Assembly: GCA_027002475.1 (NCBI GenBank)
Contig: JALWZS010000030.1
Coordinates: forward strand, 54,827-118,826
DNA from: a bacterium
GTDB taxonomy: Bacteria > Patescibacteriota > 4484-211 > GCA-002791395
Length of the DNA: 64,000 nucleotides
Direction of reading: 5' to 3'
The notes under the pieces are model-generated. The model saw nothing but the letters and a program-made list of their open reading frames with translations, searched no databases and was not told the origin of the DNA. The translations under genes and the position numbers were made by a program. This document shows, piece by piece, positions 2 to 58,133 of the stretch (its first letter is position 1; each line of letters begins with the position of its first letter).

Positions 2-3000
2 AGTGCTGATGGTGCTGGAGTGACAGCATATTATTTATCGAGTGGAGCTAGTAATGCTCCGTCCGGGACGGATCATGCATTGTTTACTTTATCTTACAGT
101 AGCTCATGGTCGACTCAATTAGCGGCTGATTGGCGGACTAATAATTGGTATGTTAGAGAGCAGAATAATGGTACTTGGGGAGCTTGGGACACAATATGGA
201 CAAGTGGTAATGATGGTTCTGGTTCTGGGTTAGATGCAGATTTGTTAGACTCACTTAGCTCTACTGATTTTGCCAGGTGGTATGGTAGGGTAGTTACCGA
301 CTTTAACAGTTATGCTACTTCGCCGAGTGGCTTTTATGGTGTGTCAGGGACAGCCGCTAACGGTCCTGAAGGAAGTTACCAAGCAATGATAAATGCAAGG
401 AACTTGGATGTTGGGTTCCAACTTGTTGGTGGATACAATACTGATGACTTGTGGTATCGGGGTTGGGCAAGTTCTGGTAGTACTTTTTATAGTTGGCGGA
501 GGCTACTTCATAGTGGTAACTTTAACTCATACGCTCCAACTTTAACTGGTGGAGGTGCCAGTGGTACTTGGGGAATTAGCGTTACTGGTAGCGCTGGTAC
601 ATTGGATGGCATAGATTCTTCTCAATTCTTACGGAGTGATACTGATGATTCGTTTTCAGGGACATTAACAGGTAATGGTGGTTTTTACTCTGCTACTAAG
701 GACGATATTACAACTAGAACGGATGGTGGATTCTGGCAAACAAGTACTGCAACAACAAGTGAAGGCTGGCCACAAACTACAGATAGCTGGTACCATCTGC
801 TTTCTTCTACACATAGTAATCAATCGAATTATTATTCGATGCAATTCGCGGGTAATTTTTATAACAGTAATGATATTTACTATCGTTCTACTGCAGGCTC
901 TGGAACTACGGCTTGGAACAAGTTATGGCATGCAGGCAATGATGGTTCTGGTTCTGGGCTAGATGCAGATTTATTAGATGGACATGATAGTAGTTACTTT
1001 CAAGTTGCAGGGACATACGATAACTATAGTTCGTGGACACTCGCAGGAACTAGTGGGACACCACAGACAATAAGTAGTGGGGATACAGCAACAATAGCAG
1101 CAGGGACGGGAATTACAACAACGGTGGGAGCAACAGACACAGTTACAATCGCTGCGACCCTGGGTACAGCTATTGAGAAAGACGAGTTAGTGAACAGTGG
1201 TACTCTTTCTTTCGACTGGACGGATGCAGAGATCACAGATGACCTTACTATCTCAAGTAATGGAACGGTAACTCTGAACACAACAAGTAGTACAAGTGAA
1301 GGGGCAATTAGGTGGGATGCTACTAATGACAGAATAATCGTCGGAACAGGTGCGTCGACAGCAACATTCTATAGTGGAGTCGGCAGTCAAGACCTAGCTA
1401 GCGTTTTGGCAAATGGAAACTCTGCAGGTAGTTACAGTATTAATATGAACAATCAAGGAGTGGCGAGTGTCGGTGTTTTGTCCTTTAATGAGGGGAGTAA
1501 TTTTAAGATTGATGCAAATGCATCAGGGTTATTATTTGATGGTGGTGATGGTACTTGGGATTTCTTAATTTATGACGACCAGATTTACAGTGATCAGATT
1601 AGAGTCGGTTATAACGGCAATGCTATTATATCAACCTATGATTCAGGGGAAGATTTACAGCTAACAAGTAATGGTGGAGATGTTTACGTGAACGACTACC
1701 TTGGAATAGGTAACTCTGCTCCGTCCTACGCTCTTGATGTCACTGGCGATCAAAGAGTAACAGGGCATTTAGCTATAGCGGATGTGGTAGATACAAACTA
1801 CGTCCTCAAAGCCAATGGGAACTCATACTTGGGTAACTACGTAGGGATTGGTACTGGAAATATTGGCACGGAGGGTTATCGCCTTATTGCTGCCGGTGCA
1901 GCTTATTTCTGGACGGACCTTAAGATTAACGGTAATGCAACTTTGGGCGACGCGTCGACAGATACTGTAGCTATAAGCGGAAATACAACTCTTGGTAGTA
2001 CGACAACAACAACTACTACGGTAAAGGGGTATATGTATAGAGGGCTACCAATACGATTTACAAGAACGACAGTAGCTATCAGCTCCTCAAATTCTACCAA
2101 AGACACTACTTGTACCAATGAATTTGGAAGTGCCTATCAAGCAGCTACTGTTACAGACTTAGCACTAAATGCTGGGGGCGGTGGGAGCAAGTCTGTATAC
2201 TACTTTACAACTTATGGGGAGACCTCATATAAATTTGCCTATACTATCAAATATGGTGGGAGCTATAACGGCGAAGCTATATTGCAAGCGGTTTATGATA
2301 CTACAAGCAGCTTGTCAGTAGCTTGTATACGCAAGGATGCAAACATTCTTGTTTCCCGTACGACCACAGCCGCTTCGAACGCCAATAGCACCAAAGACAC
2401 AACTTGTAGCACTGATTATGGCTCCAACTATCGTGCAGCTAATATATATGAAGTTTTCAGCTACGCAGCTTCATTGGGGGTCTCTAGTCGCGCTAAGTTA
2501 TTTAACGTAGCTGATTCCTCGAGTAGCTGGTACCCGCAGTGGGACAATACAAACGGAACAACAAATATACAGGCAACGACAGGTGGAACATATGGTGTTG
2601 CCTGTATTATGAAAGATCCTGCTGGTGGGGCTGACTATGCGGAAACAATTTTGGCTGGTCAAAAAGATATTGATGCTGGTGATATTCTAGTGTCAGATCC
2701 AAGCCATGACAACTCGGCGGTTAAGTCAATAAAGCCGTATCAAGGTACCATTTTAGGGGTCGTACCAACACAGCCCGGAATGCTTATAGGTGAAGATTTA
2801 GAAGGTGATGTTACGTCCATCGCTTTGGCCGGTCGAGTACCAGTAAAAGTAACTGCTAAAAATGGCCCAATAAATATAGGAGATCCAATTACATCTAGTG
2901 ATATAGCAGGCGTAGGTATGAAAGCGACAAGGTCAGGCTACATAGTAGGTACAGCCTTGAGTGGTTTTAGTAGTGATAATCCAGATGAAATCGGAACAGT

Positions 3001-3604
3001 GACGTTGTTTGTTAATCCTGGGTACTATTTAGTTGAGACGCAGTTAGCACAGACACAATTGGATGATATTGTTTCAACTGATGAAACTGTGACTGATAGC
3101 GATGTGTCGCAAGATCTTCCTATGACTGGAGAGATGAATGAATTAACAGTAACCGATTCGCTTAAGTCTACTGGTGTTACGCAATTAGTAGATACCGAAA
3201 TTACGGGTAGCCTAAGTATAAATGGCGATATTAGCAGTCCGCTCGGCAACCTGACATTCCAGGGCGAGAAAATAATCATGACTAAAGATGGCGACTTGAA
3301 GTTAGTTAATGGTGTACTTAGTGCTAAGGAAGTAAAGACAGATAGGGTCATTGCAAATGAAGTTGAATCAAAGTCTATTAAGACATCTACAGTGGTGGGG
3401 GCGGACGAATCGAGGGGAGAAGTGATGGCTGATGCCTTAGAGATTAGAGTTGCTGTGGACTGGGATAGTGCGCCTGCGGTAGTTAACCTTACTCCGAGTT
3501 ACAACACAAACGTGTGGGTAACGGATATTACCAAATCAGGATTTACAATCCATGTAGAAAAAGTTAACGTGGATCAAAGAGTGTATTGGTGGGCAATTTG
3601 GTAA
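2..3604 (+). CDS. Giant Ser/Thr/Gly-rich secreted or surface protein with phage tail-fibre-type repeats. The 5' end is cut by the window edge.
   Basis: Reading frame is open back to base 2. Two copies of the WxxGNDGSGSGLDADLLDG(H)xSxxF motif occur near aa 65 and aa 305. Composition is highly T/S/G/N-rich and beta-rich. The C-terminal region looks like a distinct beta domain. Confidence 0.6.
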   Translation, partial: SADGAGVTAYYLSSGASNAPSGTDHALFTLSYSSSWSTQLAADWRTNNWYVREQNNGTWGAWDTIWTSGNDGSGSGLDADLLDSLSSTDFARWYGRVVTDFNSYATSPSGFYGVSGTAANGPEGSYQAMINARNLDVGFQLVGGYNTDDLWYRGWASSGSTFYSWRRLLHSGNFNSYAPTLTGGGASGTWGISVTGSAGTLDGIDSSQFLRSDTDDSFSGTLTGNGGFYSATKDDITTRTDGGFWQTSTATTSEGWPQTTDSWYHLLSSTHSNQSNYYSMQFAGNFYNSNDIYYRSTAGSGTTAWNKLWHAGNDGSGSGLDADLLDGHDSSYFQVAGTYDNYSSWTLAGTSGTPQTISSGDTATIAAGTGITTTVGATDTVTIAATLGTAIEKDELVNSGTLSFDWTDAEITDDLTISSNGTVTLNTTSSTSEGAIRWDATNDRIIVGTGASTATFYSGVGSQDLASVLANGNSAGSYSINMNNQGVASVGVLSFNEGSNFKIDANASGLLFDGGDGTWDFLIYDDQIYSDQIRVGYNGNAIISTYDSGEDLQLTSNGGDVYVNDYLGIGNSAPSYALDVTGDQRVTGHLAIADVVDTNYVLKANGNSYLGNYVGIGTGNIGTEGYRLIAAGAAYFWTDLKINGNATLGDASTDTVAISGNTTLGSTTTTTTTVKGYMYRGLPIRFTRTTVAISSSNSTKDTTCTNEFGSAYQAATVTDLALNAGGGGSKSVYYFTTYGETSYKFAYTIKYGGSYNGEAILQAVYDTTSSLSVACIRKDANILVSRTTTAASNANSTKDTTCSTDYGSNYRAANIYEVFSYAASLGVSSRAKLFNVADSSSSWYPQWDNTNGTTNIQATTGGTYGVACIMKDPAGGADYAETILAGQKDIDAGDILVSDPSHDNSAVKSIKPYQGTILGVVPTQPGMLIGEDLEGDVTSIALAGRVPVKVTAKNGPINIGDPITSSDIAGVGMKATRSGYIVGTALSGFSSDNPDEIGTVTLFVNPGYYLVETQLAQTQLDDIVSTDETVTDSDVSQDLPMTGEMNELTVTDSLKSTGVTQLVDTEITGSLSINGDISSPLGNLTFQGEKIIMTKDGDLKLVNGVLSAKEVKTDRVIANEVESKSIKTSTVVGADESRGEVMADALEIRVAVDWDSAPAVVNLTPSYNTNVWVTDITKSGFTIHVEKVNVDQRVYWWAIW

Positions 3605-3759
3605 AAGGTTAAATACTATATTACGCACTGGAAATACCTTAATTTATTGTTGGATTGATTGCCGCTGGCGTGGCATGATTTACTATTTTCTGTCTTGTTG
3701 AGTTTCTATACCACACAACCGGCTTGGCCAAAATGGTAAAAATGCATAAAATGTTAAAC

Positions 3760-4014
3760 ATGGAGACTGTTACAGCTACAGAACTAAAACGTAATACGTC
3801 AGATATCTTAAATAAAGTTGTTTATGCGGGAAGAGATGTATTGATCAAAAGACATGGTGTTGTCGTTGCGAAAGTAGTTGCTGTAAAAAGAAACGATGAC
3901 ATCGAAGTTAAAGGTAGGCTCAAGAAATATAAGGGAGCAGTCCCAGGACTTGCTCGTGAAGTGAAGGGTGTGCGAAAAGGCCTAAATAAGGACACGGAGA
4001 AAAGGTTAATGTAA
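3760..4014 (+). CDS. Phd/YefM-family antitoxin-like small protein with a Lys-rich C-terminal tail. Several in-frame starts are possible between 3724 and 3760.
   Basis: The N-terminus VTATELKRNTSDILNKVVYAGRDVLIKRHGVVVAKVVAV matches the Phd/YefM fold signature. No toxin ORF lies on either side. Confidence 0.55.
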   Translation: METVTATELKRNTSDILNKVVYAGRDVLIKRHGVVVAKVVAVKRNDDIEVKGRLKKYKGAVPGLAREVKGVRKGLNKDTEKRLM

Positions 4015-4241
4015 GGTAGCTGTACCCTATACCCTAATCGAATCTCAGATCTGAAACTGTTGTGACTTCACTATGAGGGATTTACATTCTTGTTATGTCC
4101 GTCAGATAACAGTAGCGTTTGTGATAAAGGATACGGGTTAGTATTTCTCTTGTTAATGCATGCAAATCTTGGCGATAGCATAGAGGATTAAGATGGTTGT
4201 TTGGTTGTCTGGGGCGCGTTGGTGCTATACTGGGTTTAGTC

Positions 4242-4799
4242 ATGCCAAGAAAGAATGGACATTGGCAAGTAAATAATAGTCAGCTGGTTTATGGAAATCC
4301 GTGGATGCAAGTCTATGAGGATGATGTGACTGATTACAGTGGGGTTCGCACTACTTTTTCTCGTGCTAATGTTAGAGATGGTGTAACAATTGTTGCATTA
4401 GATTCTGATAATAATATCTACTTAATAAGTACTACGCGATACGCTGTGCAAAAAAACAGTGAAGAGTGTATTAGCGGCGGCATAAAAGAAGATGAAAGCC
4501 CACTGGACTGCGCTAAAAGGGAATTGGCTGAGGAAATAGGAGCTTTCTCTAATGAATGGATTAGCTTAGGAACGATTCATACTTTTCCAGATAAATTGGA
4601 GCATACTGAAAGTTTATTTATTGCTAAAAACATTAAACCCTTAAATCATAAGCCGCCACTTGATACATCTGAAAAACTGGATGTATCGAAGATCCCGTTC
4701 TCTTTGGCAGTTGAGTGGGTAATGAATAGTAAGATAATGCATAGCCCAAGTTGTGTTGCAATATTGAAGGCACAAAAGTATATAAACGGTGTTGATTAG
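4242..4799 (+). CDS. NUDIX hydrolase (ADP-ribose pyrophosphatase-like)
   Basis: Nudix box GGIKEDESPLDCAKRELAEEIG (GX5EX7REUXEEXGU). Confidence 0.8.
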   Translation: MPRKNGHWQVNNSQLVYGNPWMQVYEDDVTDYSGVRTTFSRANVRDGVTIVALDSDNNIYLISTTRYAVQKNSEECISGGIKEDESPLDCAKRELAEEIGAFSNEWISLGTIHTFPDKLEHTESLFIAKNIKPLNHKPPLDTSEKLDVSKIPFSLAVEWVMNSKIMHSPSCVAILKAQKYINGVD

Positions 4800-7205: not shown

Positions 7206-7556
7206 CCGATAGCGCCGCCTCTCTAGGGTGCTACCTTTCGTTATTTGCTTGCCCACCGCTTGCACCTTGAGGCCGATAAGGCGCTCTCTGTATAATTAAA
7301 TGCGTGAATCGTGCGTTGTTCAACCAATCTGAACGCTCGATACCAAGCCGATGCAGCCGCCAAATATGTTGGTTTTGCGCGTCGCTGGCGATCTAATAAT
7401 GTGCTCAATTGCTTCGTACTGCACGCCTAGCGCTTGTCTTGTAGTATGGATGCGCGTTTTGCGTGCGCTGCTTTGGCGGGTTGTGGCGGCGCGCCCTATA
7501 TAATTATGTCTTCGGGTAGTGCGTTTGGTGTGTACTTATGTTGTTATAATTAATGT

Positions 7557-10638: not shown

Positions 10639-11289
10639 TTATTGTTTTTCAGCTTGATGTAGGAGTTCGTTCACTTTGTTCCAATTAACTGTTTCTATCC
10701 AATTTTTTATATACTCTCCTCTTCTGTTTTGGTATTTAAGGTAATATGCATGTTCCCATACATCTATTCCAAGGATTGGTAGTGAGCCATTTGATATTGG
10801 AGAATCTTGATTTGGCGTTGAATCTACTTCGAGACTTCCTGTTTCGTTAATAAAGAGCCACGCCCATCCGCTGCCAAATCTAGTAAGTGCGCTATTATAA
10901 AGTTCTTGCTTGAAGTTTTCCATGTCTCCAAAAGTCTTGTTAATTATGGCAACTAATTCTTTGGGCATGTCCTTATTTTGCGGTGGGGTCATAATGTACC
11001 AATATAGTGAATGGTTGGCATGTCCGCCTCCGTTATTTCTAATTGCGGTGCGTATGTCTTCAGGTATTGTCGCTAGGTTTGATAAGAGTTCTTGTAGTGT
11101 TTTTTCTTGTAGCTTAGGGTATTGCTCTAGCGCAGAATTAAGCTTGTTAACGTACCCTTGATGATGCTTAGAGTAGTGAAGCTCTATTGTCTTAGCGTCT
11201 ATATAAGGTTCAAGTGCATCATAGCTATAACCAAGCTCAGGAAGTGTGTAAGGATATTTAGTGTCCAGTATCTCAAAGGGGTTATTCAT
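10639..11289 (-). CDS. sodA: Fe/Mn superoxide dismutase
   Basis: YDALEPYIDAKTIELHYSKHH at the N-terminus and DVWEHAYYLKYQNRR at the C-terminus. Confidence 0.95.
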   Translation of the reverse strand: MNNPFEILDTKYPYTLPELGYSYDALEPYIDAKTIELHYSKHHQGYVNKLNSALEQYPKLQEKTLQELLSNLATIPEDIRTAIRNNGGGHANHSLYWYIMTPPQNKDMPKELVAIINKTFGDMENFKQELYNSALTRFGSGWAWLFINETGSLEVDSTPNQDSPISNGSLPILGIDVWEHAYYLKYQNRRGEYIKNWIETVNWNKVNELLHQAEKQ

Positions 11290-14081: not shown

Positions 14082-15569
14082 TCATGTATCCCATGATACT
14101 CTACCTAATCGATCCTTCTTTTGCAGTATGAAGGCGACTTCTGTGTAGGAGTCTTCTCCTATAAAAGCATCATAGTGTTTTACATCTAGTACCTTAAGTC
14201 CCGCAAGGTGGCAATAGTGCTCAAATTCTTCTAGTTGTGGGAAATATCGACGATTACCTTGTTTTTCTGGTGAGTAAGGTTTATCTGTTGGACTCGCTTT
14301 AGCTGTAACTATTCCTGGTAAATCCTCGGGGTGGGTTTCTGTGTGTTTGATTATTAATTCCGGATATGGGCCAGTAGTGGGGTCTGGTATCTCAACAATT
14401 ACAACTCCGTCTTTTTTGACTAGGGAGCTTAATCTATTAAGCATTGTTACCATTTTGTGTGGGGAACCGGTAAAGTTAATGAAATTCCATGGGGCAACTA
14501 TTAAATCGGGCGTATCTTCGTAAATTGCTTCAAATGAATACGGTGTAAGTGTTTCTAACTGCGATTCAAGTGCGTGTATGAAATCACCTGCAAGTAGTTC
14601 GCGTTGTATGTCTTTGGGCAATTGAGTAAAATGAGGCACCTCTTGCAGTCGTTTTTTAAGTCTATGGCGGATATCATCTATTTGCTCGGGGGGCAGTACT
14701 TGCTGTAGCAGGGTATATAAGGGATCATTATTTGTGGCGCCTTCATTAGTTAATGCTTGTGCAAGTGTTAGCATACGCTCTTTTGTTTTGACAAGCCTTG
14801 AAGCGTTAATGTCGGTACCCACGACTGTATGCCCGAGGAGTGCTAGCGGAATAGCTATTCTCCCTTCTCCTGTACCAGCCTCTAGTATTGTTAAGTCTTG
14901 CTCTGGGAGTAAGTCTTGAATAGTTTCTAAAATAATGCGTAAGGTTTCTGCTGTGTTTGTGCGCTTTTTCTCAAGGCTTAGTAGATCTATCGTTTCTTGG
15001 ACTTGAAGCATACGCCTTGTTGTAGGTACTGTATCGTCGCTGTATAAACTTTTTGAGACGGCGATTAGCTTGAATACGTCTTCTGGGGTGCTTTCTAGAG
15101 TGTCTGGTGTTACGTGTAGTTCGTTAGGGGAGTGAGGTATTGTTATGTCTTCGTGACTGACTGCGATTATGGTGGGTACAGGGCTGTGCTTAAGTGATTG
15201 TGCTGCCTGTAGGAGTGTTTCTTCTGTAATTTCTGGGAAGGCTTGTTGGATAGTTTTTAAGTTTAGATCCAAGTGGGGTAAGGTTTCTAGAAAACCTGTC
15301 AGTTCATGTATTTCTGGCAGGGGGATATCGGTTGTGTCGATTACTATGTAGTGCAGGGGAGTGCCTGTACTTAGTATTTCAATTACTTTATAAAAGATAT
15401 CTTTGTAACTATCGGCGGCAAAATGTTCGCCGTTCATTTGGGAAGAATTTTCGGAGAGGTTAACAAGTAGAGTGTTTAATTTAAATGTTTTGAGGAGTTC
15501 TTGACGTTTAATTTCTAGTAGATTGGGAGTTCTAAGTTCTTTTGCTCCTTGCATTCTTTGTCGGGTCAT
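14082..15569 (-). CDS. Two-domain protein (paralogue P1). An unknown ~230-aa N-domain is followed by a class-I SAM methyltransferase domain (TPMT/TehB-like motif I) carrying a long insertion.
   Basis: Motif I ILEAGTGEGRIAIPLALLGHTVVGTDIN. Post-motif DLIVAPWNFINFTG...VKKDGVVIVEIPDP. Collinear with P2 at 17943-19415. Confidence 0.65.
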   Translation of the reverse strand: MTRQRMQGAKELRTPNLLEIKRQELLKTFKLNTLLVNLSENSSQMNGEHFAADSYKDIFYKVIEILSTGTPLHYIVIDTTDIPLPEIHELTGFLETLPHLDLNLKTIQQAFPEITEETLLQAAQSLKHSPVPTIIAVSHEDITIPHSPNELHVTPDTLESTPEDVFKLIAVSKSLYSDDTVPTTRRMLQVQETIDLLSLEKKRTNTAETLRIILETIQDLLPEQDLTILEAGTGEGRIAIPLALLGHTVVGTDINASRLVKTKERMLTLAQALTNEGATNNDPLYTLLQQVLPPEQIDDIRHRLKKRLQEVPHFTQLPKDIQRELLAGDFIHALESQLETLTPYSFEAIYEDTPDLIVAPWNFINFTGSPHKMVTMLNRLSSLVKKDGVVIVEIPDPTTGPYPELIIKHTETHPEDLPGIVTAKASPTDKPYSPEKQGNRRYFPQLEEFEHYCHLAGLKVLDVKHYDAFIGEDSYTEVAFILQKKDRLGRVSWDT

Positions 15570-15589
15570 ATCTAAATTATGCAGAGTTT

Positions 15590-15631
15590 ACGCAAAAAAG
15601 AAAGCCCCGACCGCATGAGAGCGGTCGGGGC
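15590..15631 (-). terminator. Rho-independent terminator: 11-bp perfect stem GCCCCGACCGC/GCGGTCGGGGC followed by a T-run on the minus strand
   Basis: Lies directly 3' of the minus-strand CDS 15638-16231. Confidence 0.8.
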
Positions 15632-15637
15632 TCGAAT

Positions 15638-16231
15638 TTATTCTTTGGTCTTGCGGCTTTTGTCGATTAGCGGCCGCAAGCCCTTTTCATCCCCTTTCTG
15701 AAGAGCCTGCTCGAGCTCTTCAGAAAGGGAACAGGGCTCGATCTCTCCTTCGGCGATGAAGGCGTGCTTGGCCCAAAAGGCCAGCGCCTCCTTTCGCTCA
15801 GAAGAAGAGATCCTAGTACTCCAAAGTTTGGAGTCCCCTGGCTCTCGCGGAGCCAGGTTAGCGCCAGGAAATAGGGTGAACAAAATCAAATCACCCTGTT
15901 TGCCCCAGCGCCCGAAAAGCACCACCCCGTGGTTGGGGTGGCGCTCATATCCCCTGACGAAGCGGCTGGGGGTGAACCGCCCGGGGCGGTAACCCCAGAA
16001 CACCTCGTCAGAGGCTTTTGTGGGAGTCACCCCTGTGAGCCCAAAGGACTCGTCAGGGAAAAAGACCCCCTCGAACCGCCCCACCCGTTCTTCGGGCGGG
16101 ACAGTTTTTGCGATTTCGGACTCCAGTCGCTCAACCAACTGAGCGACGAAGTCCGAAAATGACATCCCCTCGGGCACGATGAAGTCGCCCTCATGTGCCC
16201 GAAGGTGCTGCATATTGTAAAAAATTTTCAC
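15638..16231 (-). CDS. Hypothetical protein X, encoded in a GC-rich foreign-codon island (GTG start)
   Basis: SD GGAGGGCAAAG sits directly upstream of GTG. Codons are rich in GGG/CCC/GTG/TTC, unlike the AT-rich host. No recognisable domain. Confidence 0.55.
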   Translation of the reverse strand: MKIFYNMQHLRAHEGDFIVPEGMSFSDFVAQLVERLESEIAKTVPPEERVGRFEGVFFPDESFGLTGVTPTKASDEVFWGYRPGRFTPSRFVRGYERHPNHGVVLFGRWGKQGDLILFTLFPGANLAPREPGDSKLWSTRISSSERKEALAFWAKHAFIAEGEIEPCSLSEELEQALQKGDEKGLRPLIDKSRKTKE

Positions 16232-16265
16232 TTTGCCCTCCTTTGGGGGATTGGTGTAGGGTTTT

Positions 16266-16303
16266 CAACAAAAAAACCCGACTGCGCGTGTGCACAGCCG
16301 GGG
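16266..16303 (-). terminator. Rho-independent terminator (stem CCCGGCTG...CAGTCGGG + T7) between cassette genes Y and X
   Basis: On the minus strand the hairpin is followed by TTTTTTTG, immediately 3' of CDS 16320-16940. Confidence 0.65.
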
Positions 16304-16319
16304 GCAAGAAATGGCGTGT

Positions 16320-16940
16320 TTATTGCTTGTTCAGCGCGTTGAGAGCGCGGATAAATTCTTCACGCTCTTTGCTGGGATGCTCCTTCTGCAGGAGCTCCAG
16401 CGCCTTTTCGACGCTCACCTCCTTCTGGGCCCCACTGCTCCAAGCCCCCACATATATTGCTGCTGAATATGTGTGGGTGTTCAGGAAGACCTTTCCTTTT
16501 TCGTCGATTTCAAGGAAGAAAGTCTCCCTCAAGGATGTATACCAAAAACAACGATAATACTCGTAACGAATTATGGTGACCCTTTCCCCATCAGTTATGT
16601 GCGGGGCCACCAGTTCTTCGAAGCTGGGAATCTCGCTGTCCTCGAGTTCCCCGAGGTCAACTATACTAACCTCGAGATCTTCTTGCTCGAGGAGTCTTTT
16701 CAAGCCCTCGACCCCTTCTGTGCCGAGGGCACTCGCCCACTCTGCATACCGAGCGTAATCTGGGTCGTCGCTCGGTGTGGTGACAGTGGGCTCCTCAGCT
16801 ACGGCGTCGTCATTCCATATGTCTTCGAAATGGCTGACGACACGCTTTTTCCCTAGGAAGATGTGAGTGCAAAACACATCTTCCTCGATTGGCCCTCGGG
16901 CCGCTTTTTCTTTACTCATGCTTTCCAGTTTTATTTTCAT
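16320..16940 (-). CDS. Hypothetical acidic protein Y, encoded in the GC-rich foreign-codon island
   Basis: ATG preceded by the same GGAGGGCAAAG leader as gene X. GC-rich codons. The track ORF extends to 17237, but the RBS-supported start is at 16940. Confidence 0.55.
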   Translation of the reverse strand: MKIKLESMSKEKAARGPIEEDVFCTHIFLGKKRVVSHFEDIWNDDAVAEEPTVTTPSDDPDYARYAEWASALGTEGVEGLKRLLEQEDLEVSIVDLGELEDSEIPSFEELVAPHITDGERVTIIRYEYYRCFWYTSLRETFFLEIDEKGKVFLNTHTYSAAIYVGAWSSGAQKEVSVEKALELLQKEHPSKEREEFIRALNALNKQ

Positions 16941-17124
16941 CTTTGCCCTCCTTTTGGGCTGGTTGTGGGGGTATGCTACTTCCCCCGAAAGAAAAAATTG
17001 ATTGTTAAAGTTCTCGAGAGATGCCTGTATTATACTATGGGGTGCATCACATGTCAAGTGGTAACTAGCGGATGCTGGTTTGTGTATAATACTGTAGTGG
17101 TCGGACATACCTTGTATGTGGCTC

Positions 17125-17154
17125 ATATTTGTCAAGTGCATACTTGACAAATAT
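17125..17154. promoter_or_regulatory. Perfect 12-bp inverted repeat ATATTTGTCAAG-N6-CTTGACAAATAT. It overlaps a TTGACA(-35)-16bp-TATACT(-10) promoter for the TrmB-like gene and a mirrored TTGACA facing the GC-rich cassette.
   Basis: Read directly from the sequence. It sits 27 bp upstream of the ATG at 17181. Confidence 0.7.
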
Positions 17155-17180
17155 GCTTGCGCATGTATACTATAAGTAGT

Positions 17181-17969
17181 ATGGCAGAAATCGCAGAGAT
17201 TCTTACTAGTGCAGGCCTCAGTGATGGCGAATCCCAAGTTTACTTAAAGCTTCTTGAAACAGGTCGTACAAGTGCATCGACACTTGCAAGAGAAATGTCT
17301 ATGGCTAGAGGAGTGGTTTACTTCATCTTGGAACAACTTGAAAAGAAAGGATTGGTTGTTAGATTACCAAACGGCAAGCGATTCTTATACCAAGCCAAAC
17401 ATCCGAGCGAACTCTTGGCGCTAATAGATAGAAAAAAGCATGAACTAGAATCAAGTAAAGCTTCTATTGGCTCAATTATCCCAATGCTAAGTGAAATGTA
17501 CTCATCAACATCGGTTAAACCTGTCGTAAGTTACTTTGGTGGAGTTGAGGGAGTAAAGAAGGTTTATTTAGACACTCTTAAGGTTGGTGAAACGATATAT
17601 GCTGCGATGCATAGCGGTAGGGTGAATATGGACGTTCATAAGTGGGTGCGTGAAAAGTACGTTCCAGAGAGAGTAAACCGTGGAATAAAAGCTAAGGTCA
17701 TAATGTCTGCGAACGAACGCGTAGAGATTTTTAAGAAGGAAAACAAAGAAAAACTGCGTGAGATGATCGTTGTTGATAGCGATATATTCCATGTGAAAAT
17801 GGAAGTTAATATCTATGGTAACAAAGTTGGGTTCATATCTTCGCATGCAGATGCTGACTTATTCGGAGTTATCATTGATAGTCCATTTGTTGCTCAAAGT
17901 ATGTTGGCGCTTTGGAAGTTAGCTTGGATTGGTGCAGGTGGCTCACTGCCTCGTAGCGATGATAAATAA
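17181..17969 (+). CDS. TrmB-family winged-HTH transcriptional regulator (paralogue 2)
   Basis: MAEIAEILTSAGLSDGESQVYLKLLETGRTSASTLAREMSMARGVVYFILEQLEKKGLVVRL. The track start at 17157 would place the promoter inside the ORF. Confidence 0.75.
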   Translation: MAEIAEILTSAGLSDGESQVYLKLLETGRTSASTLAREMSMARGVVYFILEQLEKKGLVVRLPNGKRFLYQAKHPSELLALIDRKKHELESSKASIGSIIPMLSEMYSSTSVKPVVSYFGGVEGVKKVYLDTLKVGETIYAAMHSGRVNMDVHKWVREKYVPERVNRGIKAKVIMSANERVEIFKKENKEKLREMIVVDSDIFHVKMEVNIYGNKVGFISSHADADLFGVIIDSPFVAQSMLALWKLAWIGAGGSLPRSDDK

Positions 17970-19415
17970 CTCTGAGATTGTGTTAGTTTGCAGCTCTTTA
18001 GATTTTGGAATAATCCTTTCACGAGCAATCTTTTCTACAGAAAACCCGGCTAGCTGCAAAAGCATAGACAGCTCATCGGCGTTAGGGTAGTAGCGCAGTG
18101 CACCAAAACCATCATCATCTTCTTTGTATAATTGGTTGCCATGATGTTGAGCTTTTGCCCTAAAAAAGCCTGGCGGATTACTAGGGTGTTTGTAGTAATA
18201 CTCAGCTAACATACTTGCATACGGTTCATCTTTTGGGTTCGGGACTTCAATATATAGCACACCGCCCTTAGGTAGTGTGTTATATAAATGATTTAGGGTC
18301 CGCAGCATTTGGTCTGGCCCTCCAATAAAGTTAAGTGTATTCCATGCGAGAATTATCATTTCAGGTTGATTCGCCATAGCGTGTAGAGAGCGTTTATCAA
18401 GTTCTTGAATACCCATTTCAATCGGATGAAAACGGGTTAAAGCCTGCTCTACCTCATTTGATTGCAATAATTGCTCTGTATCAATCTCTAGCTCGGGGGC
18501 TACTCTTAGGAATTCATCTACAAGAGAATCGTCTGGAATGGCTCTTTTGGTTAATGCGGTAGTTGCCTCTTGCAACCGCTTCACTGCTGAGTCTAACCTA
18601 GTAGTAGCTGCATCGATGCCAATGACATTAAATCCAAGCAAAACGAGAGGTATCGCTATTCTCCCTTCACCAACTCCAGCCTCAAGAATATACCTTGGAA
18701 GATGCCCTGTCTTTTCATTAAACATGCGTATCCCTTCTAACACGTAAGTTAGTGACAACCTTAAGTCAGCGGATATCCGTTCAAGACTCCTTAGATTTAC
18801 ATGTTCTTGCCTGCGTTTTAATTGTTCGACCAATTCTTCGGTTTGAGCTGGAAAACGTGAGCGATTAAACGCGGCATCTTTAGCGGCTAGAAGATGAGGT
18901 TGAATATTGTCTTGTGAAGTTATTACACTATCAATCCCACCAATACTTCGAAGTTTTGCGGCAAGTTCATCATCTGTTGTTCGGACAATGAAGTAAGGGA
19001 TTTGCTTTGCTGTAACATTGTCTATGGCTTTTTGCACTTCATCTATGGAGTGCCCTTGTTGAATAAGATCATTTTCTATGGTGGCTTTGTCGTTGCCATC
19101 TGTTGCGGCTACTGCAAGGGCTGATTTCACTCGCAGTATACCTGTCAGATGAGGAAAATCTTCTTCGGATTCAACGTCTACTATTACTATATGAGTTATT
19201 TGTTCTTCTGCTAGTCTAGATATCAATTGTTGCGGAATCTCACTAACTGTAAGAATATCAACATCAGCTACCAAGTCATGTGCAGTTTCTGTAAGTGTGG
19301 GATCGGTTGCAAGAATATTGACAGGGAAGTTGCGTAAGGTCTCAGTAAATGTGGGTAATTTTTCGCGGTGTTCTTTGCCTATCAAACGCCTATGGCTAGT
19401 GCTGGCCTTTGTCAT
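17943..19415 (-). CDS. Two-domain protein (paralogue P2), an N-domain plus a class-I SAM methyltransferase domain, like 14082-15569
   Basis: Motif I ILEAGVGEGRIAIPLVLLGFNVIGIDAA. MIILAWNTLNFIGG...LPKGGVLYIEVPNPKD. Confidence 0.65.
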   Translation of the reverse strand: MTKASTSHRRLIGKEHREKLPTFTETLRNFPVNILATDPTLTETAHDLVADVDILTVSEIPQQLISRLAEEQITHIVIVDVESEEDFPHLTGILRVKSALAVAATDGNDKATIENDLIQQGHSIDEVQKAIDNVTAKQIPYFIVRTTDDELAAKLRSIGGIDSVITSQDNIQPHLLAAKDAAFNRSRFPAQTEELVEQLKRRQEHVNLRSLERISADLRLSLTYVLEGIRMFNEKTGHLPRYILEAGVGEGRIAIPLVLLGFNVIGIDAATTRLDSAVKRLQEATTALTKRAIPDDSLVDEFLRVAPELEIDTEQLLQSNEVEQALTRFHPIEMGIQELDKRSLHAMANQPEMIILAWNTLNFIGGPDQMLRTLNHLYNTLPKGGVLYIEVPNPKDEPYASMLAEYYYKHPSNPPGFFRAKAQHHGNQLYKEDDDGFGALRYYPNADELSMLLQLAGFSVEKIARERIIPKSKELQTNTISELFIIATRQ

Positions 19416-21281: not shown

Positions 21282-21358
21282 GGGCCCATAGCTCAGTTGG
21301 CTAGAGCGCCACGCTGGCAGCGTGGAGGTCAGGGGTTCAAATCCCCTTGGGTCCACCA
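21282..21358 (+). tRNA. tRNA-Ala (anticodon GGC), CCA encoded
   Basis: Cloverleaf with a G3:U70 pair and anticodon loop CTGGCAG. A terminator-like hairpin GCCGAACTGTTTCGGC follows. Confidence 0.9.
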
Positions 21359-40155: not shown

Positions 40156-41246
40156 TTTTCTATGAGTTTGTAGTAGAGCTCTTCGTATTTATCTACCATT
40201 TTAGCGGCAGAGAAATTGTCTACAAATCGTTGTCTTGCCTGCTCTCGATTTAGTTTATCTACCACGTTTATTTTTTCTGCTAGTTCGTCTATTGTTTCTA
40301 CTAAAAATCCAGAGACTCCATCTTCAATAATTTCTGGGAGTGCACCACGTTTATTTGCAATGACGGGAGTGCCAACGGCAAGCGATTCTATTGCAACCAA
40401 ACCAAATGGTTCATCCCACTGAACTGGCATTAGTGTTGCAGTGGCTTTCTTTAAAAACGCTTTTTTTTGATGATTATCAAGAGGTCCCAAGTACTCAACT
40501 TGCTGGGAGCTTAGATATGGTTCTACTTCTTCTTTAAAGAATTTAATACTTGCCTCGTCATGGTCATCTATTGGTCCAGCTATTTTTAGTTGCTTATCGG
40601 TTTTTAGTATTGCTTGAATTGCTTGCCCTACGCCTTTAAATCCACTTATGTAGCCTAAGTATGCAAAGTAATTTCCAGGTTTCGTTGAATACTCATGCCA
40701 TTCTTGTAACGGTAGCCCATTGTGTATAACACTTGATGGGCGTCCAACATGCTCTTGTAACATTTTCGCTTGGAATTCACTTACGGAAACGACGTGCGCA
40801 TTAAAATCTTTATTAACTACGTATTTATGGTAGCTCGGGGGAAATTCATTGCGAAGACTTAGTTCAAAAGCTACTGGATGATGCATTGTCGTGACAACTG
40901 GTGTTGGAATAAATCCAGCGTATAGGTCACTTTCAAAGTATGTATGATCATGGATAATGTCAAACTCTTTGTATTTAGAATACGCTTTTTTAGCAGCTAA
41001 ATGTGTGTACCAGCCAATATCTCTCACTTGAGATGCTTTGTCACGGCTTACCGCTACTGGCCAAACAGGTTCGATCCGCGCTGACACTTTAGAGTCTGCG
41101 CTGCCAAAGAGCGTTACATTGTGCCCTCTAGCGGCCAATTCTTCAACTAGATAATAAACCATTTGCTCTAAACCTGCTTTATTGATCGGCGGAACCGATT
41201 CATAACAGTTAGTTACTTGTGCAATGTTTAATGAGCGTTTATTCAT
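40152..41246 (-). CDS. GT4 (group 1) glycosyltransferase
   Basis: EPFGLVAIESLAVGTPVIANKRGALPEII. Confidence 0.85.
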   Translation of the reverse strand: MNKRSLNIAQVTNCYESVPPINKAGLEQMVYYLVEELAARGHNVTLFGSADSKVSARIEPVWPVAVSRDKASQVRDIGWYTHLAAKKAYSKYKEFDIIHDHTYFESDLYAGFIPTPVVTTMHHPVAFELSLRNEFPPSYHKYVVNKDFNAHVVSVSEFQAKMLQEHVGRPSSVIHNGLPLQEWHEYSTKPGNYFAYLGYISGFKGVGQAIQAILKTDKQLKIAGPIDDHDEASIKFFKEEVEPYLSSQQVEYLGPLDNHQKKAFLKKATATLMPVQWDEPFGLVAIESLAVGTPVIANKRGALPEIIEDGVSGFLVETIDELAEKINVVDKLNREQARQRFVDNFSAAKMVDKYEELYYKLIEK

Positions 41247-42469
41247 CGTTGTTCGAGGTCAGGGAACGTTGCTGTATACTTCTTGTAAGAATTTTCGTAT
41301 TCTTTGTATTTTTCTTGTGGCTTACTAGACCAGTTGTATTGCCACATTTTTTTTATAAGCGTTGTATATAGCTCTTCTGCTTGTGCTTTGTCTTGATTAC
41401 TTATGGGTAGCGTTCGGATTGACTTTATTAACTGTGTTGCACCTGCTTCGACAATCTCCGGGTTCCACCATGGCCAGTTAGAAAGCCAATATGGGTGACA
41501 AGAAGAAAGACCTTTATCAAGATGCTTTTCAGCAGAACTGTACTTTAAATCAATGTCTTCAGTTGGTTTGTTTATAGATAGCAGATGGGTTGATGCAAGA
41601 TCGGCTAGCTCCCAATATAGTTGTTGAAGTTCGTTATCACTGTCTTTCCATAGACTAAAAGGGTTATTGGGGGTTGGGCTATAAATCTCCCCAGACACCC
41701 AACTAGAATCAAGTATCTCTGTTTCCACCTTTGTAAACCCGTGTTGGTTGGAAACTTCTGAAAGCTGTTTTATTGCGATAGTGGGGTTTTTGTGAACATC
41801 GAACAGGAAGTTAAGTCTCTCGGTGTAATGATGGCCAAAGATTTCAACATCGCTAACCGAAACTATGGTGTTATGACTAGCGTGTTGACTTAGCCAGTCT
41901 GCAAATTTTTCGACGGATAATACCCTTGGGAAAGCTCTAAGAATGTTGGTAACATTCCTTGATGAGACAATTAGCTTATACGAGTCGATCTGGATAAATG
42001 GCTCTACGAGACTACTGTCTTTAATAGCATTACTATCGATGAGGATCTTAGCTCCTAAGCTACTTAATTTGCGAGTAACTTCTTGGTTGACAGCTAGCTC
42101 TGGTGGGTAAATGACATCTATTGGGCTTGTTTGCATAAAGTATTCAATAACACCGCGGTTGTATTCTAGTTGCCGTAAGTAAATTTCGCTTGTAGTGAAG
42201 GGGAGCAGTGGGTGATATAAGGGGGAATTGACAAATTCTAATTGTTGACTTTGCACGAGCTTTCTTGCCAACTTAAAAAACTCACTTTTTTCAATTCGGT
42301 CTAGCTGTAAAATTAAGGACCCGCTTATGTTAACAGTAAGCTTAAGGTCAGGATGGTCTAACAATCGTTTCATAAATGGGATATAACTAGACTCTGTTAC
42401 TTGTTTTACAATTGAGTCTTTTTGTGTGGGCGGTTGGTAGAAATGTAGTACTGGCGACCAGTTGAGCAT
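41243..42469 (-). CDS. GH57-family alpha-glucan-active enzyme (second copy)
   Basis: N-terminal LHFYQPPTQ. Collinear similarity to 37372-38535. Confidence 0.7.
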   Translation of the reverse strand: MLNWSPVLHFYQPPTQKDSIVKQVTESSYIPFMKRLLDHPDLKLTVNISGSLILQLDRIEKSEFFKLARKLVQSQQLEFVNSPLYHPLLPFTTSEIYLRQLEYNRGVIEYFMQTSPIDVIYPPELAVNQEVTRKLSSLGAKILIDSNAIKDSSLVEPFIQIDSYKLIVSSRNVTNILRAFPRVLSVEKFADWLSQHASHNTIVSVSDVEIFGHHYTERLNFLFDVHKNPTIAIKQLSEVSNQHGFTKVETEILDSSWVSGEIYSPTPNNPFSLWKDSDNELQQLYWELADLASTHLLSINKPTEDIDLKYSSAEKHLDKGLSSCHPYWLSNWPWWNPEIVEAGATQLIKSIRTLPISNQDKAQAEELYTTLIKKMWQYNWSSKPQEKYKEYENSYKKYTATFPDLEQR

Positions 42470-52427: not shown

Positions 52428-52529
52428 CTCTTATAAAGAGAGGTGGAGGGACCGGCCCGATGAAGCCTCGGCAGCCTGCAAAAGCAAGGTGCCAATTCCG
52501 GCAAGGTGAAGACCTTGAAAGATGAGAGG
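52428..52529 (+). promoter_or_regulatory. SAM-I (S-box) riboswitch aptamer in the metK leader
   Basis: CTCTTATAAAGAGAGGTGGAGGGACCGGCCCGATGAAGCCTCGGCAGCC...AAGGTGCCAATTCCGGCA...GATGAGAG matches the S-box consensus. Expression-platform terminator at 52547-52569. Confidence 0.9.
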
Positions 52530-52604: not shown

Positions 52605-53765
52605 ATGTTATTTACGTCAGAATCAGTTACACAGGGGCATCCAGACAAGGTCTGCGATCAAATCAGTGATGCAGTTTTAGATGCTTGTTTGGCGCAAGAT
52701 CCTAACTCTAGGGTAGCGTGTGAGGTTGCGACCAAAACAGGGTTTGTCATTTTAATGGGTGAGATTACAACTAATGCTCGAGTTGATTTTGAGGAAATTG
52801 CTAGAAATGTCCTTTTAGACATTGGCTATGACAGTAGTGAAGCGGGTTTGGATGGTAATACCTGTGGAGTTTTAACATCAATTAGCAAACAATCTCCAGA
52901 TATCGCACGAGGTGTAAATTCGGCCAAAGATGAGAGAGAAACTTTAGGTGCAGGAGATCAAGGTTTGATGTTTGGCTATGCTTGCAACGAAACAGAAAAC
53001 TTAATGCCACTTCCCATCGAGCTTGCTCATAAGCTAGTAAAAGGTTTAGCCAACGCAAGAAAATCAGGTGAACTTCCATGGCTTAGACCAGATGGCAAAA
53101 GTCAGGTAACTGTTGAATATGATGACAACGGGCGACCAAAACGAATTGACACGGTCCTAATTAGCACTCAGCACTCGCCAGATGTCAGTCAACAAGAGAT
53201 TCGTGAAGCTTTGATTGATAAGGTAATTATGCCGCAATTGCCAAAAGACTTAGTTGATGAGAGTTTAAAGATTTTGGTTAATCCAACTGGGCGTTTTGTG
53301 ATTGGTGGTCCTGCTGGAGATGCTGGGCTTACTGGTAGAAAGATTATGGTTGATACTTATGGGGGGATGGCAAGGCATGGTGGGGGAGCATTTTCCGGGA
53401 AAGATGCAACTAAAGTTGACCGGTCTGCGGCGTATGCTCTTCGCAAGGTCGCTAAAACAGTTGTTTCTAAAGGAATGGCAGATAGGTGTGAGGTGCAAGC
53501 CGCTTATGCAATCGGTGTAGCAAAACCTGTTAGTTTGTTTGTTGAAACTTTTGGTACAGGGAAGGTAAGTGATAAAGAGATTTTAGAGTTTATCAAAAAA
53601 GAGTTTGACTTAAGACCGGGAGCGATTATTCAAGATTTAGGTCTTAGAAAGCCTATTTTTAGGCCCCTAGCTACATACGGTCACTTCGGAAGAGAGGACT
53701 TGGGGGTGGAGTGGGAGAAGGTCGTAGAGTGTGAATCAACTGTGAGGGCGACAAATGTTGTTTGA
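52605..53765 (+). CDS. metK: S-adenosylmethionine synthetase
   Basis: [26 protein letters not shown] and GGGAFSGKD. Confidence 0.95.
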
Positions 53766-56994: not shown

Positions 56995-58062
56995 TTAGCT
57001 TTGCGGTATCTGAACTTTATTAAGCAGAGAGATTTGTTCTAACGATATTCCACATCCGCGTGCAACTGTGGTTAATGGGTCTTTGTCTATAAATACCGGC
57101 ATTTGAGTTTCGTTGGCAATTCTTTTATCAAGCCGTCTAATTAAAGCTCCGCCACCAGTTAGAACTATTCCTTGAGAGTAAAGGTCGGATATTATTTCTG
57201 GAGGGGTTTCTTCAACCGTGTCTTTAATGTTGTCGACAATAAGTGAAATTGCAGGGTTTAATGCTTCATAAAGATCGTTTTCTGATATAGTTATCTCGCG
57301 CGGTAAGCCCGTTCTTAAGTCGCGACCTCTGATCGTTGCGGTTTCTGGCTCGCTTTCGGTATTAGGCAGTGCAGAGCCAATTTGTATCTTAACCTTTTCG
57401 GCTGTTCGCTCTCCAATTATTAAGTTGTGACGTTGCTTAACCCAATCAACAATGGCCTTGTCCATCTCGTCACCTGCAACACGAATTGATCTGCTAACAA
57501 CTATTCCGCCAAGACTAATAACTGCCATCTCTGATGTGCCACCACCAATATCTACAACCATACTTCCAGATGCTTCTTCAACTGGAAGCCCTGCGCCAAT
57601 CGCTGCTGCCATTGGTTCTTCAATTAAATAAACTTTTCTTGCGCCGCTTCTTCTTGCTGCGTCAATGACTGCTTTTCTCTCAACCTCGGTTATCCCAGAA
57701 GGGATTCCAACAGTCATTCTAGGGCGTGGAATTTTATAGCTAAACGGTTTTCTGGTTTTGTGTACCTTTTTAATAAAATAAGAGAGCATTGCTTCTGTTG
57801 CATCAAAGTCAGAAATGACACCGTCTCTTAGGGGACGAAGAGCAATAATGTTTGCTGGAGTTTTACCAATCATCTTTTGCGCATCCGTTCCGACTGATAA
57901 AACGTCTTTGGTTTTTTTATGTATTGCTACAGTTGAGGGCTCGCGTATTACAATGCCTTTTCCTAGTACAAAAACTAACGTGTTGGCGGTCCCTAAATCT
58001 ATACCAATATCATGTGTGAAATATTGCCAAATGTTGTCGATTAAAGAATTGTTACTGCTCAT
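56995..58062 (-). CDS. mreB: MreB rod-shape protein (paralogue 2, next to mreCD-PBP2)
   Basis: IGIDLGTANTLVFV...DIGGGTSEMAVISLGG. Confidence 0.9.
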   Translation of the reverse strand: MSSNNSLIDNIWQYFTHDIGIDLGTANTLVFVLGKGIVIREPSTVAIHKKTKDVLSVGTDAQKMIGKTPANIIALRPLRDGVISDFDATEAMLSYFIKKVHKTRKPFSYKIPRPRMTVGIPSGITEVERKAVIDAARRSGARKVYLIEEPMAAAIGAGLPVEEASGSMVVDIGGGTSEMAVISLGGIVVSRSIRVAGDEMDKAIVDWVKQRHNLIIGERTAEKVKIQIGSALPNTESEPETATIRGRDLRTGLPREITISENDLYEALNPAISLIVDNIKDTVEETPPEIISDLYSQGIVLTGGGALIRRLDKRIANETQMPVFIDKDPLTTVARGCGISLEQISLLNKVQIPQS

Positions 58063-58133
58063 GAATATCAAAATGATTATACAGCACTATCTTTATCTAT
58101 TTTTATTTTGGGATGACTATATAATGATGGTGC

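Follow-up and report, generated by a model that had tools for sequence, protein, structure and literature searches.

The question raised by this locus is how a pair of GC-rich genes came to lie beside a TrmB-type regulator in a low-GC bacterium, and what the pair does. The locus occupies positions 15,570 to 17,180 of a 64,000-nucleotide (64-kb) stretch of contig JALWZS010000030.1 (assembly GCA_027002475.1, Patescibacteriota). This whole stretch was analysed and is referred to as the window. The two genes, designated X and Y, are encoded on the minus strand. The initial annotation described them as a horizontally acquired, tandemly duplicated cassette, perhaps an immunity/effector-like or defence pair. 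The best overall explanation found here is a foreign-composition accessory operon in a variable slot, encoding a putative nuclease (X) and its putative inhibitor (Y), with a rough probability of 0.45.

Composition and layout of the island

GC content was measured in 300-nt windows and 1-kb bins over the whole 64 kb. In the 300-nt windows it was 0.55-0.62 between 15600 and 16200 and then 0.50-0.53 up to about 16950, compared to 0.37-0.45 in the flanks (0.37 at 15300-15600 on the left, 0.40-0.42 past about 16950 on the right). The non-island windows had a mean of 0.404, a standard deviation (sd) of 0.033 and a maximum of 0.537. The peak of the island lies more than 6 sd over this mean and is the sole stretch above 0.54. 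The 1-kb bins were at 0.36-0.47 save for the two spanning the island. The GC-rich island between flanks of about 40% described earlier was confirmed by these values.

Codon usage was also unlike that of the host. GC content at third codon positions (GC3) was 0.67 in X and 0.59 in Y compared to 0.33-0.38 in six adjoining genes. In synonymous choice GGG made up 56-70% of Gly codons, CCC 43-54% of Pro codons and TTC 62-67% of Phe codons. Under native usage the likelihood per codon was -0.21 for X and -0.15 for Y, outside the range of the 49 other open reading frames (ORFs) of the window (-0.01 to +0.13). The foreign codon usage claimed from the GGG, CCC and TTC bias is borne out by both measures. 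The locus was also recovered in full, at 99.96% identity over 12.8 kb, in a second, independent ENA assembly (sample SAMN10217877), which rules out an assembly artefact at the junctions.

The island is one small operon in the order promoter, leader, Y, attenuating terminator, X, terminator, all on the minus strand. The sigma-70 promoter (17029-17057) consists of TTGACA, a 17-nt spacer and TATAAT and matches the consensus at 12 of 12 positions. The 5' leader of about 80 nt (16941-17028) contains a GGGGG/CCCCC hairpin (16967-16986) and ends with a ribosome-site block, CCCAAAAGGAGGGCAAAG, at 16941-16958, directly before the ATG of Y. The Shine-Dalgarno (SD) sequence of this first copy is at 16946-16951. 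The leader folded no better than shuffled sequences (z = -0.9). Gene Y (16320-16940, 206 amino acids (aa)) is followed by an intrinsic terminator or attenuator (16302-16267) with an 11-bp stem and T7, and the folding energy of 16223-16310 was -33.4 kcal/mol (z = -3.45). The second copy of the ribosome-site block, CCCCAAAGGAGGGCAAAG, lies at 16231-16248 (SD at 16236-16241), its last base being the first of the GTG start of X. This start was backed by alignment to the N-termini of homologs, which lie in the same frame as gene X (15638-16231, 197 aa). The strong terminator that ends the operon (about 15592-15633) is an inverted repeat with a 13-bp stem, 10 GC pairs and a T-run. Directly after it comes the promoter of the next gene, MT1, which is of the leaderless type (CATAAT). 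The two minus-strand genes of the initial annotation are therefore both present, X at the stated 197 aa and Y at 206 rather than 207 aa. The MKI at the N-terminus of both products and the intrinsic terminator of each gene (about 15633-15602 in the case of X) were found as described.

The SD site of X and of Y is GGAGGG. Nearly all other long ORFs in the window have no SD sequence and many have a TATAAT-like box 5-12 nt ahead of the start. Examples of such leaderless-like starts are at 7557, 10639-11289, 22433, 32789, 41243-42469, 56995-58071, 58134, 17181 (the regulator gene TrmB2) and 15569 (MT1). This suggests that the host organism predominantly uses leaderless mRNAs. A long leader with a GGAGGG site is restricted to Y and X among the genes of the window, and the cassette therefore also differs from host genes in its mode of translation. 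In composition, codon usage and translation signals the island is atypical of the host DNA.

The two ribosome-site blocks are identical at 17 of 18 positions and lie 710 bp apart, bracketing a 710-bp unit made up of Y and its terminator. The 18-nt block is the sole repeat in the island. In all loci compared it was found only ahead of Y, X and the X homolog of a related contig, L004. A shared leader of about 35 bp had been claimed; the part that stands is the 18-nt block over the SD site, while the likeness farther upstream is at chance level. Tandem duplication of the genes themselves was considered and rejected. X and Y share no detectable similarity (best BLASTP match between them E 9.7) and are unrelated, so no gene was duplicated in tandem and the proposal of a tandemly duplicated cassette fails. 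No RNA family was found in the island at the curated gathering thresholds of Rfam, and permissive thresholds gave terminator-like noise only, with no match near a family threshold. No integrase or transposase was found near the island among the window ORFs searched with Pfam.

Relatives of the two proteins

The concatenated sequence of X and Y was used as a HMMER query, and every relative matched X and none matched Y. The exhaustive search (phmmer) of 1.84 billion representatives yielded 56 relatives of X, the best being P0004 (38% identity, E 7e-23) and the next P0005 and P0006. A word-indexed search of 5.8 billion proteins gave only self matches for X. Forty-nine of the 57 aligned sequences (X and its 56 relatives) matched PHROG 23674, the best at 5e-29. 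X itself matched phrog_23674 at E 0.0025, over X residues 60-162 and positions 50-149 of the 157 in the profile. No match to X was found in Pfam (E <= 0.1 and E <= 5), NCBIfam or PADLOC.

PHROG 23674 includes Pectobacterium phage CBB gp601, Cronobacter phage GAP32 gp368 and Pseudomonas phage Astolliot UOL48742, which belong to the same family as X. These proteins are similar in size (150-180 aa) and have the motifs H..aH, FWgyRpGR..PSR, T.Y/F.G..aPrE..Dp and FW..HAl. They differ from X in having about 25-36% identity to it and in their setting, as the phage copies lie amid tRNA genes without a TrmB gene or a Y-like partner. Membership names the family of X and not its activity, as no member has a known function. 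A literature search for the PHROG 23674 identifier and for TrmB in Patescibacteria found nothing. The near-invariant residues, in X numbering, are H9, R82, R85, T119, F121, G123, E130, D133, F152, W153, H156 and A157. Each of these columns is kept in at least 52 of the 57 sequences, with Tyr (39) or Phe (15) at position 121. This pattern makes the X family look enzyme-like. Judged by these matches, X is a genuine member of a widespread unnamed family of phages and bacteria with enzyme-like invariant residues. The earlier statement that neither protein falls in a nameable family holds for Y, which is an orphan, and not for X, with its 56 relatives and its PHROG.

The homologs found by tblastn are labelled hypothetical and include proteins of the jumbo phages CBB, GAP32, XbC2 and Kaldavass and of Pseudomonas phage Astolliot. 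In CBB and Astolliot, the two phages inspected, the X homolog lies among tRNA genes. X homologs in two low-GC contigs (L008, 70-230; L009, 1-70) lie directly downstream of tRNA genes and have the native low GC content. In L008 a very GC-rich, structured-looking segment of 150 nt is located between the tRNA terminator and the X promoter. X-family genes are also present in the phage-like contigs L033 and L043. The X homologs in phages lie near genes for NUDIX proteins, NT5C nucleotidase, deoxynucleoside monophosphate (dNMP) kinase and NrdD/NrdG. One relative (P0056) is fused to a 2H cyclic phosphodiesterase and another (P0029) to a P-loop kinase-like domain.

Profile searches of PDB with the whole X family and with three subfamilies gave only a match of 22-24 residues around FW..HA to 4fbd and 2pd0. 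Both are apicomplexan proteins without a known function, which a published account confirms for 2pd0. The predicted model of X was too poor for fold assignment.

Y is an orphan, peculiar to this organism. Only self matches were found among the 5.8 billion (word-indexed) and 1.84 billion (exhaustive HMMER) proteins. No match to Y was found in Pfam, PHROG, NCBIfam or PADLOC, in phage genomes or in BFVD, and no fold match was obtained. MT1, which has native composition, also gave only self matches in the word-indexed search of 5.8 billion proteins. This lack of word-level relatives indicates that the lineage is poorly sampled and that orphan status is weak evidence. Y is acidic, with an isoelectric point (pI) of 4.7. 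It is probably a coding gene, as judged from its frame-specific composition (GC of 0.58, 0.36 and 0.59 at codon positions 1, 2 and 3), its ribosome site and start codon, its terminator and an AlphaFold (AF2) model from the single sequence, with a mean predicted local distance difference test score (pLDDT) of 67 and 118 residues at 70 or above. The length of the ORF was rejected as proof of coding. In sequence simulated at the composition of the island a stop-free run of the length of Y had P ~0.08, and runs of at least 197 codons occurred in 11%.

The slot beside the TrmB-type regulator

On the right the operon lies divergent to TrmB2 (17181-17969, plus strand), a winged-helix regulator with the TrmB DNA-binding domain (Pfam PF01978, E 4e-13). 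The longest ORF begins at 17157; the start is probably the ATG at 17181, leaderless, with a -10 box at 17166-17171, 9 nt ahead of it. Its C-terminal domain matched no recognised sugar-binding family in Pfam. The perfect palindrome noticed earlier at the right edge of the island, beside the TrmB-like gene, is present at 17124-17155 as CATATTTGTCAAGT-N4-ACTTGACAAATATG. Its two 14-nt arms are 100% complementary and 4 nt apart. The palindrome overlaps the -35 box of the plus-strand TrmB2 promoter (TTGACA at 17144; TATACT ending at 17171), which makes it a candidate TrmB2 operator. Its ACTTGACA core recurs as the -35 box of cargo promoters, both here and in the related loci L004 and L015. Control of the Y promoter by this regulator may be inferred from adjacency only.

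TrmB2 converges with MT2 (17943-19415, minus strand), a 490-aa class I S-adenosylmethionine (SAM) methyltransferase (Pfam Methyltransf_23) which overlaps its 3' end and is the conserved flank of the slot. On the left the island is bounded by MT1 (14082-15569, minus strand), a paralog with 30% identity to MT2. The flanks were described as duplicated TrmB/methyltransferase modules and are indeed paralogous, but the duplication is old, at 25% protein identity between TrmB1 and TrmB2 and 30% between MT1 and MT2. MT1 and MT2 matched mad2 in PADLOC through the generic methyltransferase domain only. The window has two paralogous sets, MT1 (with an aminotransferase)/TrmB1 and MT2/TrmB2. A convergent pair of a 490-525-aa SAM methyltransferase and a TrmB gene with overlapping 3' ends was seen in four distant lineages: the window (17943-17969), L004 (2411-2442), L036 (8747-8750) and L037 (8757-8777). 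The methyltransferase-TrmB pair is a conserved two-gene module with no assigned role.

The closest X homolog among the 1.84 billion representatives is that of the Logan contigs L004-L007. These contain a 496-aa methyltransferase gene, a convergent TrmB gene, a divergent X homolog and two orphans of 413 and 178 aa. Identity between L004 and the window is 34% for the methyltransferase (MT2), 45% for TrmB (TrmB2) and 35-38% for X. The L004 island (the X homolog and the 413-aa and 178-aa genes) has a GC content of 0.50-0.57 compared to 0.39-0.46 in its flanks. GC3 of the X genes is 0.60-0.67 in both lineages. The L004 X homolog has a perfect TTGACA-17-TATAAT promoter and a leader hairpin, followed by the ribosome site GCCCAAAGGAGGGTAAA-ATG.

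In L015 a TrmB gene (28% identity) is divergent to a 5-kb island with a GC content of 0.50-0.59, also preceded by a perfect consensus promoter. This island encodes an orphan, an IetA-like AAA ATPase, an NrdG-like radical-SAM protein and an X-family protein from another subfamily. The adjacency thus recurs: in both L004 and L015 the island divergent from TrmB is GC-rich and includes an X-family gene. The TrmB of L021 is 48% identical to that of L015 and stands beside a GC-rich island in a background of 30% GC. This island (1939-4731) encodes a ThiF/E1-like protein with PADLOC E1-E2 matches, a JAB-type HxH...S..D protein and a 479-aa orphan. By analogy it resembles ubiquitin-like conjugation defence modules. 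The convergent methyltransferase-TrmB pair is kept in the metagenome-assembled genome contigs L036 and L037 (GTDB), with unrelated orphans on the divergent side.

The side divergent to a TrmB-type regulator is a variable, often GC-rich slot, which is recurrent and not universal. Cargo varies at the same flanks: L004 lacks Y, and other genes are carried in L004, L015, L021, L036 and L037. That X itself is common to the window and L004 tempers this result. Where the cargo is GC-rich, it includes an X-family gene in three of four cases, making this the commonest cargo. Codon preferences differ among the islands of separate loci. Several other TrmB loci have no island. A scan of genome contigs with a profile of the TrmB alignment found seven loci, none with an X homolog, whose inconsistent taxonomic labels included Gammaproteobacteria and Peribacteria. 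The equivalent scan with a methyltransferase profile gave no loci.

In L015 (9139-9263), L021 (4732-4854), L014 (1196-1304) and L026 (772-880) the first cargo gene is closely preceded by a leader block of about 110 nt. The block is 73-88% identical across loci in which TrmB is 48-55% identical and the cargo unrelated, and 88% identical among L021, L014 and L026. In L015 and L021 the leaders around it are 0.8-1 kb long and rich in GAGAGAG-type repeats. Possible roles of the block are those of a regulatory RNA or of a junction element.

Origin and function of the operon

The locus is probably, though by no means certainly, an acquired or variable-slot accessory operon. The composition, codons and signals are foreign and the cargo varies, which speaks for the horizontal acquisition proposed in the initial annotation. 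A simple recent insertion is too simple, because the methyltransferase-TrmB-X arrangement is shared with L004 and the flanks are about as diverged as X (34-45% compared to 35-38%). For X, an old residence and a repeated acquisition both have support. The ancestral state may have been as in L004, with a promoter, leader, ribosome site and X. Y and its terminator would later have entered between the leader and X as the 710-bp unit, duplicating the ribosome-site block. An insertion of Y is suggested because Y is absent from L004 and the block lies on both its sides.

An effector/immunity-like pair is the best functional guess for X and Y. The mechanism proposed is tentative and, taken alone, rather doubtful. 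X would be a metal-independent ribonuclease, distant kin of the RNase A-like toxins of the CdiA-CT Ykris type, and would cleave RNA (perhaps tRNA) to give ends with 2',3'-cyclic phosphate and 5'-OH. The internal terminator would yield more Y than X, and the acidic Y would hold X in check as an antitoxin or immunity protein. TrmB2 would bind the palindrome, autoregulate and probably gate the operon. The points cited for Y as a partner are its pI, its upstream position with the attenuator and the confident fold for a single-sequence prediction.

That X is a nuclease has about one chance in three, judging from motifs. PF18431, the bacterial RNase A-like CdiA-CT domain, was matched by two of the 57 aligned sequences (best E 6.4e-5). 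The X family has an N-terminal His in 53 of 57 sequences and a Thr in 55 of 57, with the Tyr or Phe at Thr+2 and then Pro-Gly. The median spacing from His to Thr is 96 residues. In CdiA-CT Ykris His175 and Thr276 are invariant and 101 residues apart, Tyr278 is often Phe, and the local sequence is IITGYPTP, as taken from mutagenic primers (PMC5435912). This toxin degrades tRNA in vivo (PMC5435912). The X family and the PF18431 toxin of Yersinia kristensenii (PDB 5E3E) thus have in common the N-terminal His, a Thr about 100 residues on, the Tyr or Phe at +2 and a TGYP-like motif, a likeness at the level of motifs only. The toxin acts on tRNA, and the X homologs are found with tRNA genes and RNA-end-processing enzymes. 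The fused 2H phosphodiesterase and P-loop kinase-like domains would act on the RNA ends of such a nuclease and therefore lend support to the RNase reading. X differs from PF18431 proteins in its conserved C-terminal extension (PRE..DP, FW..HA), its RxxR motif and the lack of a secretion or delivery domain, and its putative immunity gene is upstream instead of downstream.

Other known systems were also compared. Like a type II toxin-antitoxin system, Y and X are two small neighbours on the same strand, with an acidic upstream product expected in excess, at an accessory island-like site and with a patchy distribution. Unlike such systems they have an intergenic terminator, genes of about 200 aa (larger than usual), no DNA-binding domain in Y and no match to a known toxin or antitoxin family in Pfam, NCBIfam or PADLOC. 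Autoregulation would come from the separate divergent TrmB regulator, and L004 has X without Y. The suggestion of a defence pair found no backing, as no PADLOC 2.0 component profile matched X or Y. Genomic islets and defence-type hotspots share with the island the atypical GC content and codons, the orphans and the different cargo at the same flanks, and some cargo in relatives resembles defence parts (E1/JAB, IetA-like AAA ATPase). Typical islets differ in having an integrase, a tRNA target and direct-repeat boundaries; here the promoter, leader and regulator seem to belong to the site as conserved parts. Most islands are AT-richer than their host, whereas this one is GC-richer. The Thermococcales TrmB/TrmBL1 regulons resemble the locus in the TrmB winged helix, the divergent operon and the candidate palindromic operator at the regulator's own promoter. 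They differ from it in their sugar transport and glycolytic genes and their operator sequence, and the effector domain of TrmB2 is unrecognised.

Several findings weigh against an acquired nuclease/inhibitor operon. The coding status of Y rests on indirect points. Y is absent from L004, L015 and all other X contexts, so there is no conserved pair, and no conserved partner gene of any kind was found beside X homologs. Many X homologs of phages and bacteria seem to stand alone, which would be unusual for a toxin, and in L030 and L044 X homologs adjoin genes for CUT1-type sugar ATP-binding cassette (ABC) transporters. X itself has no PF18431 match, and the PDB profile searches with the family and the three subfamilies never recovered the CdiA-CT structure. 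R82, R85, E130, D133 and H156 are invariant in the X family and not known in the toxin family, and X is near-neutral (pI 6.0). The centre of the palindrome is more than 80 bp from the Y promoter, and repression of Y-X by TrmB2 is therefore not evident from the sequence. No mobility gene lies beside the island and no att site, tRNA target or boundary repeat flanks it, the nearest tRNA gene being at 21282. The divergence of X from its L004 counterpart equals that of the native flanks, which fits long residence as well.

Long residence is the strongest of the other explanations, although unlikely on balance. MT2, TrmB2 and X would form a native operon inherited vertically from an ancestor shared with L004, and only Y would be specific to the lineage. 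The GC content and SD sites would have been kept by selection on mRNA or translation, or through GC-biased gene conversion at a site prone to recombination. The divergence of X (35-38%) is close to that of MT2 (34%) and TrmB2 (45%), and the promoter, leader layout and ribosome-site block are common to the window and L004. The 1.84 billion representatives held nothing closer to X than the L004 protein, and mobility genes are absent. Against this, synonymous sites should have equilibrated at such divergence, yet GC3 is 0.60-0.67 in both lineages. The L008 and L009 homologs show the low GC of native genes, the cargo is replaced in L015, L021, L036 and L037, and the codon preferences differ among islands, which fits different donors.

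A metabolic role is less likely still. X would be an enzyme under sugar-sensing TrmB control whose substrate is a nucleotide, nucleoside or sugar phosphate, with Y as an accessory subunit, and the operon would be a regulated metabolic add-on and not a conflict module. TrmB regulators are classically sugar-responsive. The CUT1-type transporters beside X homologs and the NUDIX, NT5C, dNMP kinase and NrdD/NrdG genes near the phage homologs are in keeping with this, and the invariant His, Arg, Glu and Asp would suit a phosphoryl-handling enzyme. However, each neighbourhood association is one or two cases only, the cassette contains no metabolic partner genes, and the C-terminal domain of TrmB2 lacks a sugar-binding family match. 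Orphan status, foreign composition and variable cargo (E1/JAB, IetA-like AAA) look conflict-related.

A landing pad was given a similarly low likelihood. The TrmB regulator, the divergent consensus promoter and the conserved leader would repeatedly capture GC-rich, SD-dependent foreign cassettes, with the X family as recurrent cargo. By analogy the slot would be integron-like without an integrase, in low-GC bacteria with leaderless translation. The foreign signals would be functional and would not simply be un-ameliorated history. They would separate cargo expression from that of the host, for instance by confining translation of the cargo to certain ribosome or tRNA states. Hints of a junction element are the leader block that is 88% identical in L021, L014 and L026 and the ribosome-site block common to the window and L004. 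No integrase was found in the window, L004, L015 or L021 and no attC-like repeats in the window.

An origin as a phage remnant or moron is improbable. Here X and Y would descend from phage genes, left over or domesticated (such as ones for host takeover or anti-defence) and parked beside a regulator, with no toxin/immunity relation. The X family is a PHROG and occurs in jumbo phages and the phage-like contigs L033 and L043, small acidic orphans like Y are typical of phage accessory genes, and the L015 island has a phage-like NrdG-type gene. On the other side, the surroundings contain no integrase, att site or further phage gene, Y is unmatched in phage genomes and BFVD, and phage DNA is usually not GC-richer than its host.

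A chimeric assembly, a structured RNA locus with chance ORFs, or genes on the plus strand are very improbable and already largely refuted: stop-free runs of 197-206 or more codons did arise by chance in 8-11% of simulations and Y has no homologs, but both junctions lie inside one contig in two assemblies, the same architecture occurs in unrelated samples (L004, L015), the 56 X homologs are in frame, codon-position GC, SD sites, starts and terminators fit minus-strand genes, Rfam gave no match near a family threshold, and the plus-strand ORFs are mirror frames of the minus-strand genes without expression signals.

The locus is best filed as a small acquired accessory operon, possibly a toxin/inhibitor one, of moderate interest. 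What is unusual about it is the presence of GC-rich, SD-led genes in a leaderless low-GC genome together with the recurrent slot adjacent to a regulator. If the nuclease/inhibitor account is true, an unannotated family that is absent from Pfam and NCBIfam and known only as a PHROG would gain a testable RNase A-like activity linked to tRNA genes and RNA-end healing. This would bear on why jumbo phages keep an X-family gene in their tRNA clusters. The locus would also be a natural example of SD-led GC-rich genes in a leaderless AT-rich genome, useful for studies of foreign-gene translation, and the recurrent TrmB gene with its variable island would suggest that poorly sampled bacteria have a hotspot, or regulatory platform, for accessory genes that has gone unrecognised. 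If the composition has been maintained in long-resident genes, the operon would be a case against simple amelioration models. No long-standing open question is touched directly.

A few other features of the window were recorded. One possible undescribed small RNA gene is a GC-rich (up to 0.54) intergenic stretch of 350 nt at 7206-7556, which has two TATAAT boxes and no ORF and which Rfam did not match at E <= 0.1. The ORF at 20-3604 (1194 aa) had no Pfam match at E <= 1e-5. A 943-aa protein encoded at 46663-49494 has VirD4/TrwB-type coupling-protein and HerA-like domains and is possibly a component of a type IV secretion-like or conjugative apparatus. A SAM-I riboswitch (52428-52528, 89 bits) lies upstream of metK (52605-53765), which is an ordinary arrangement.

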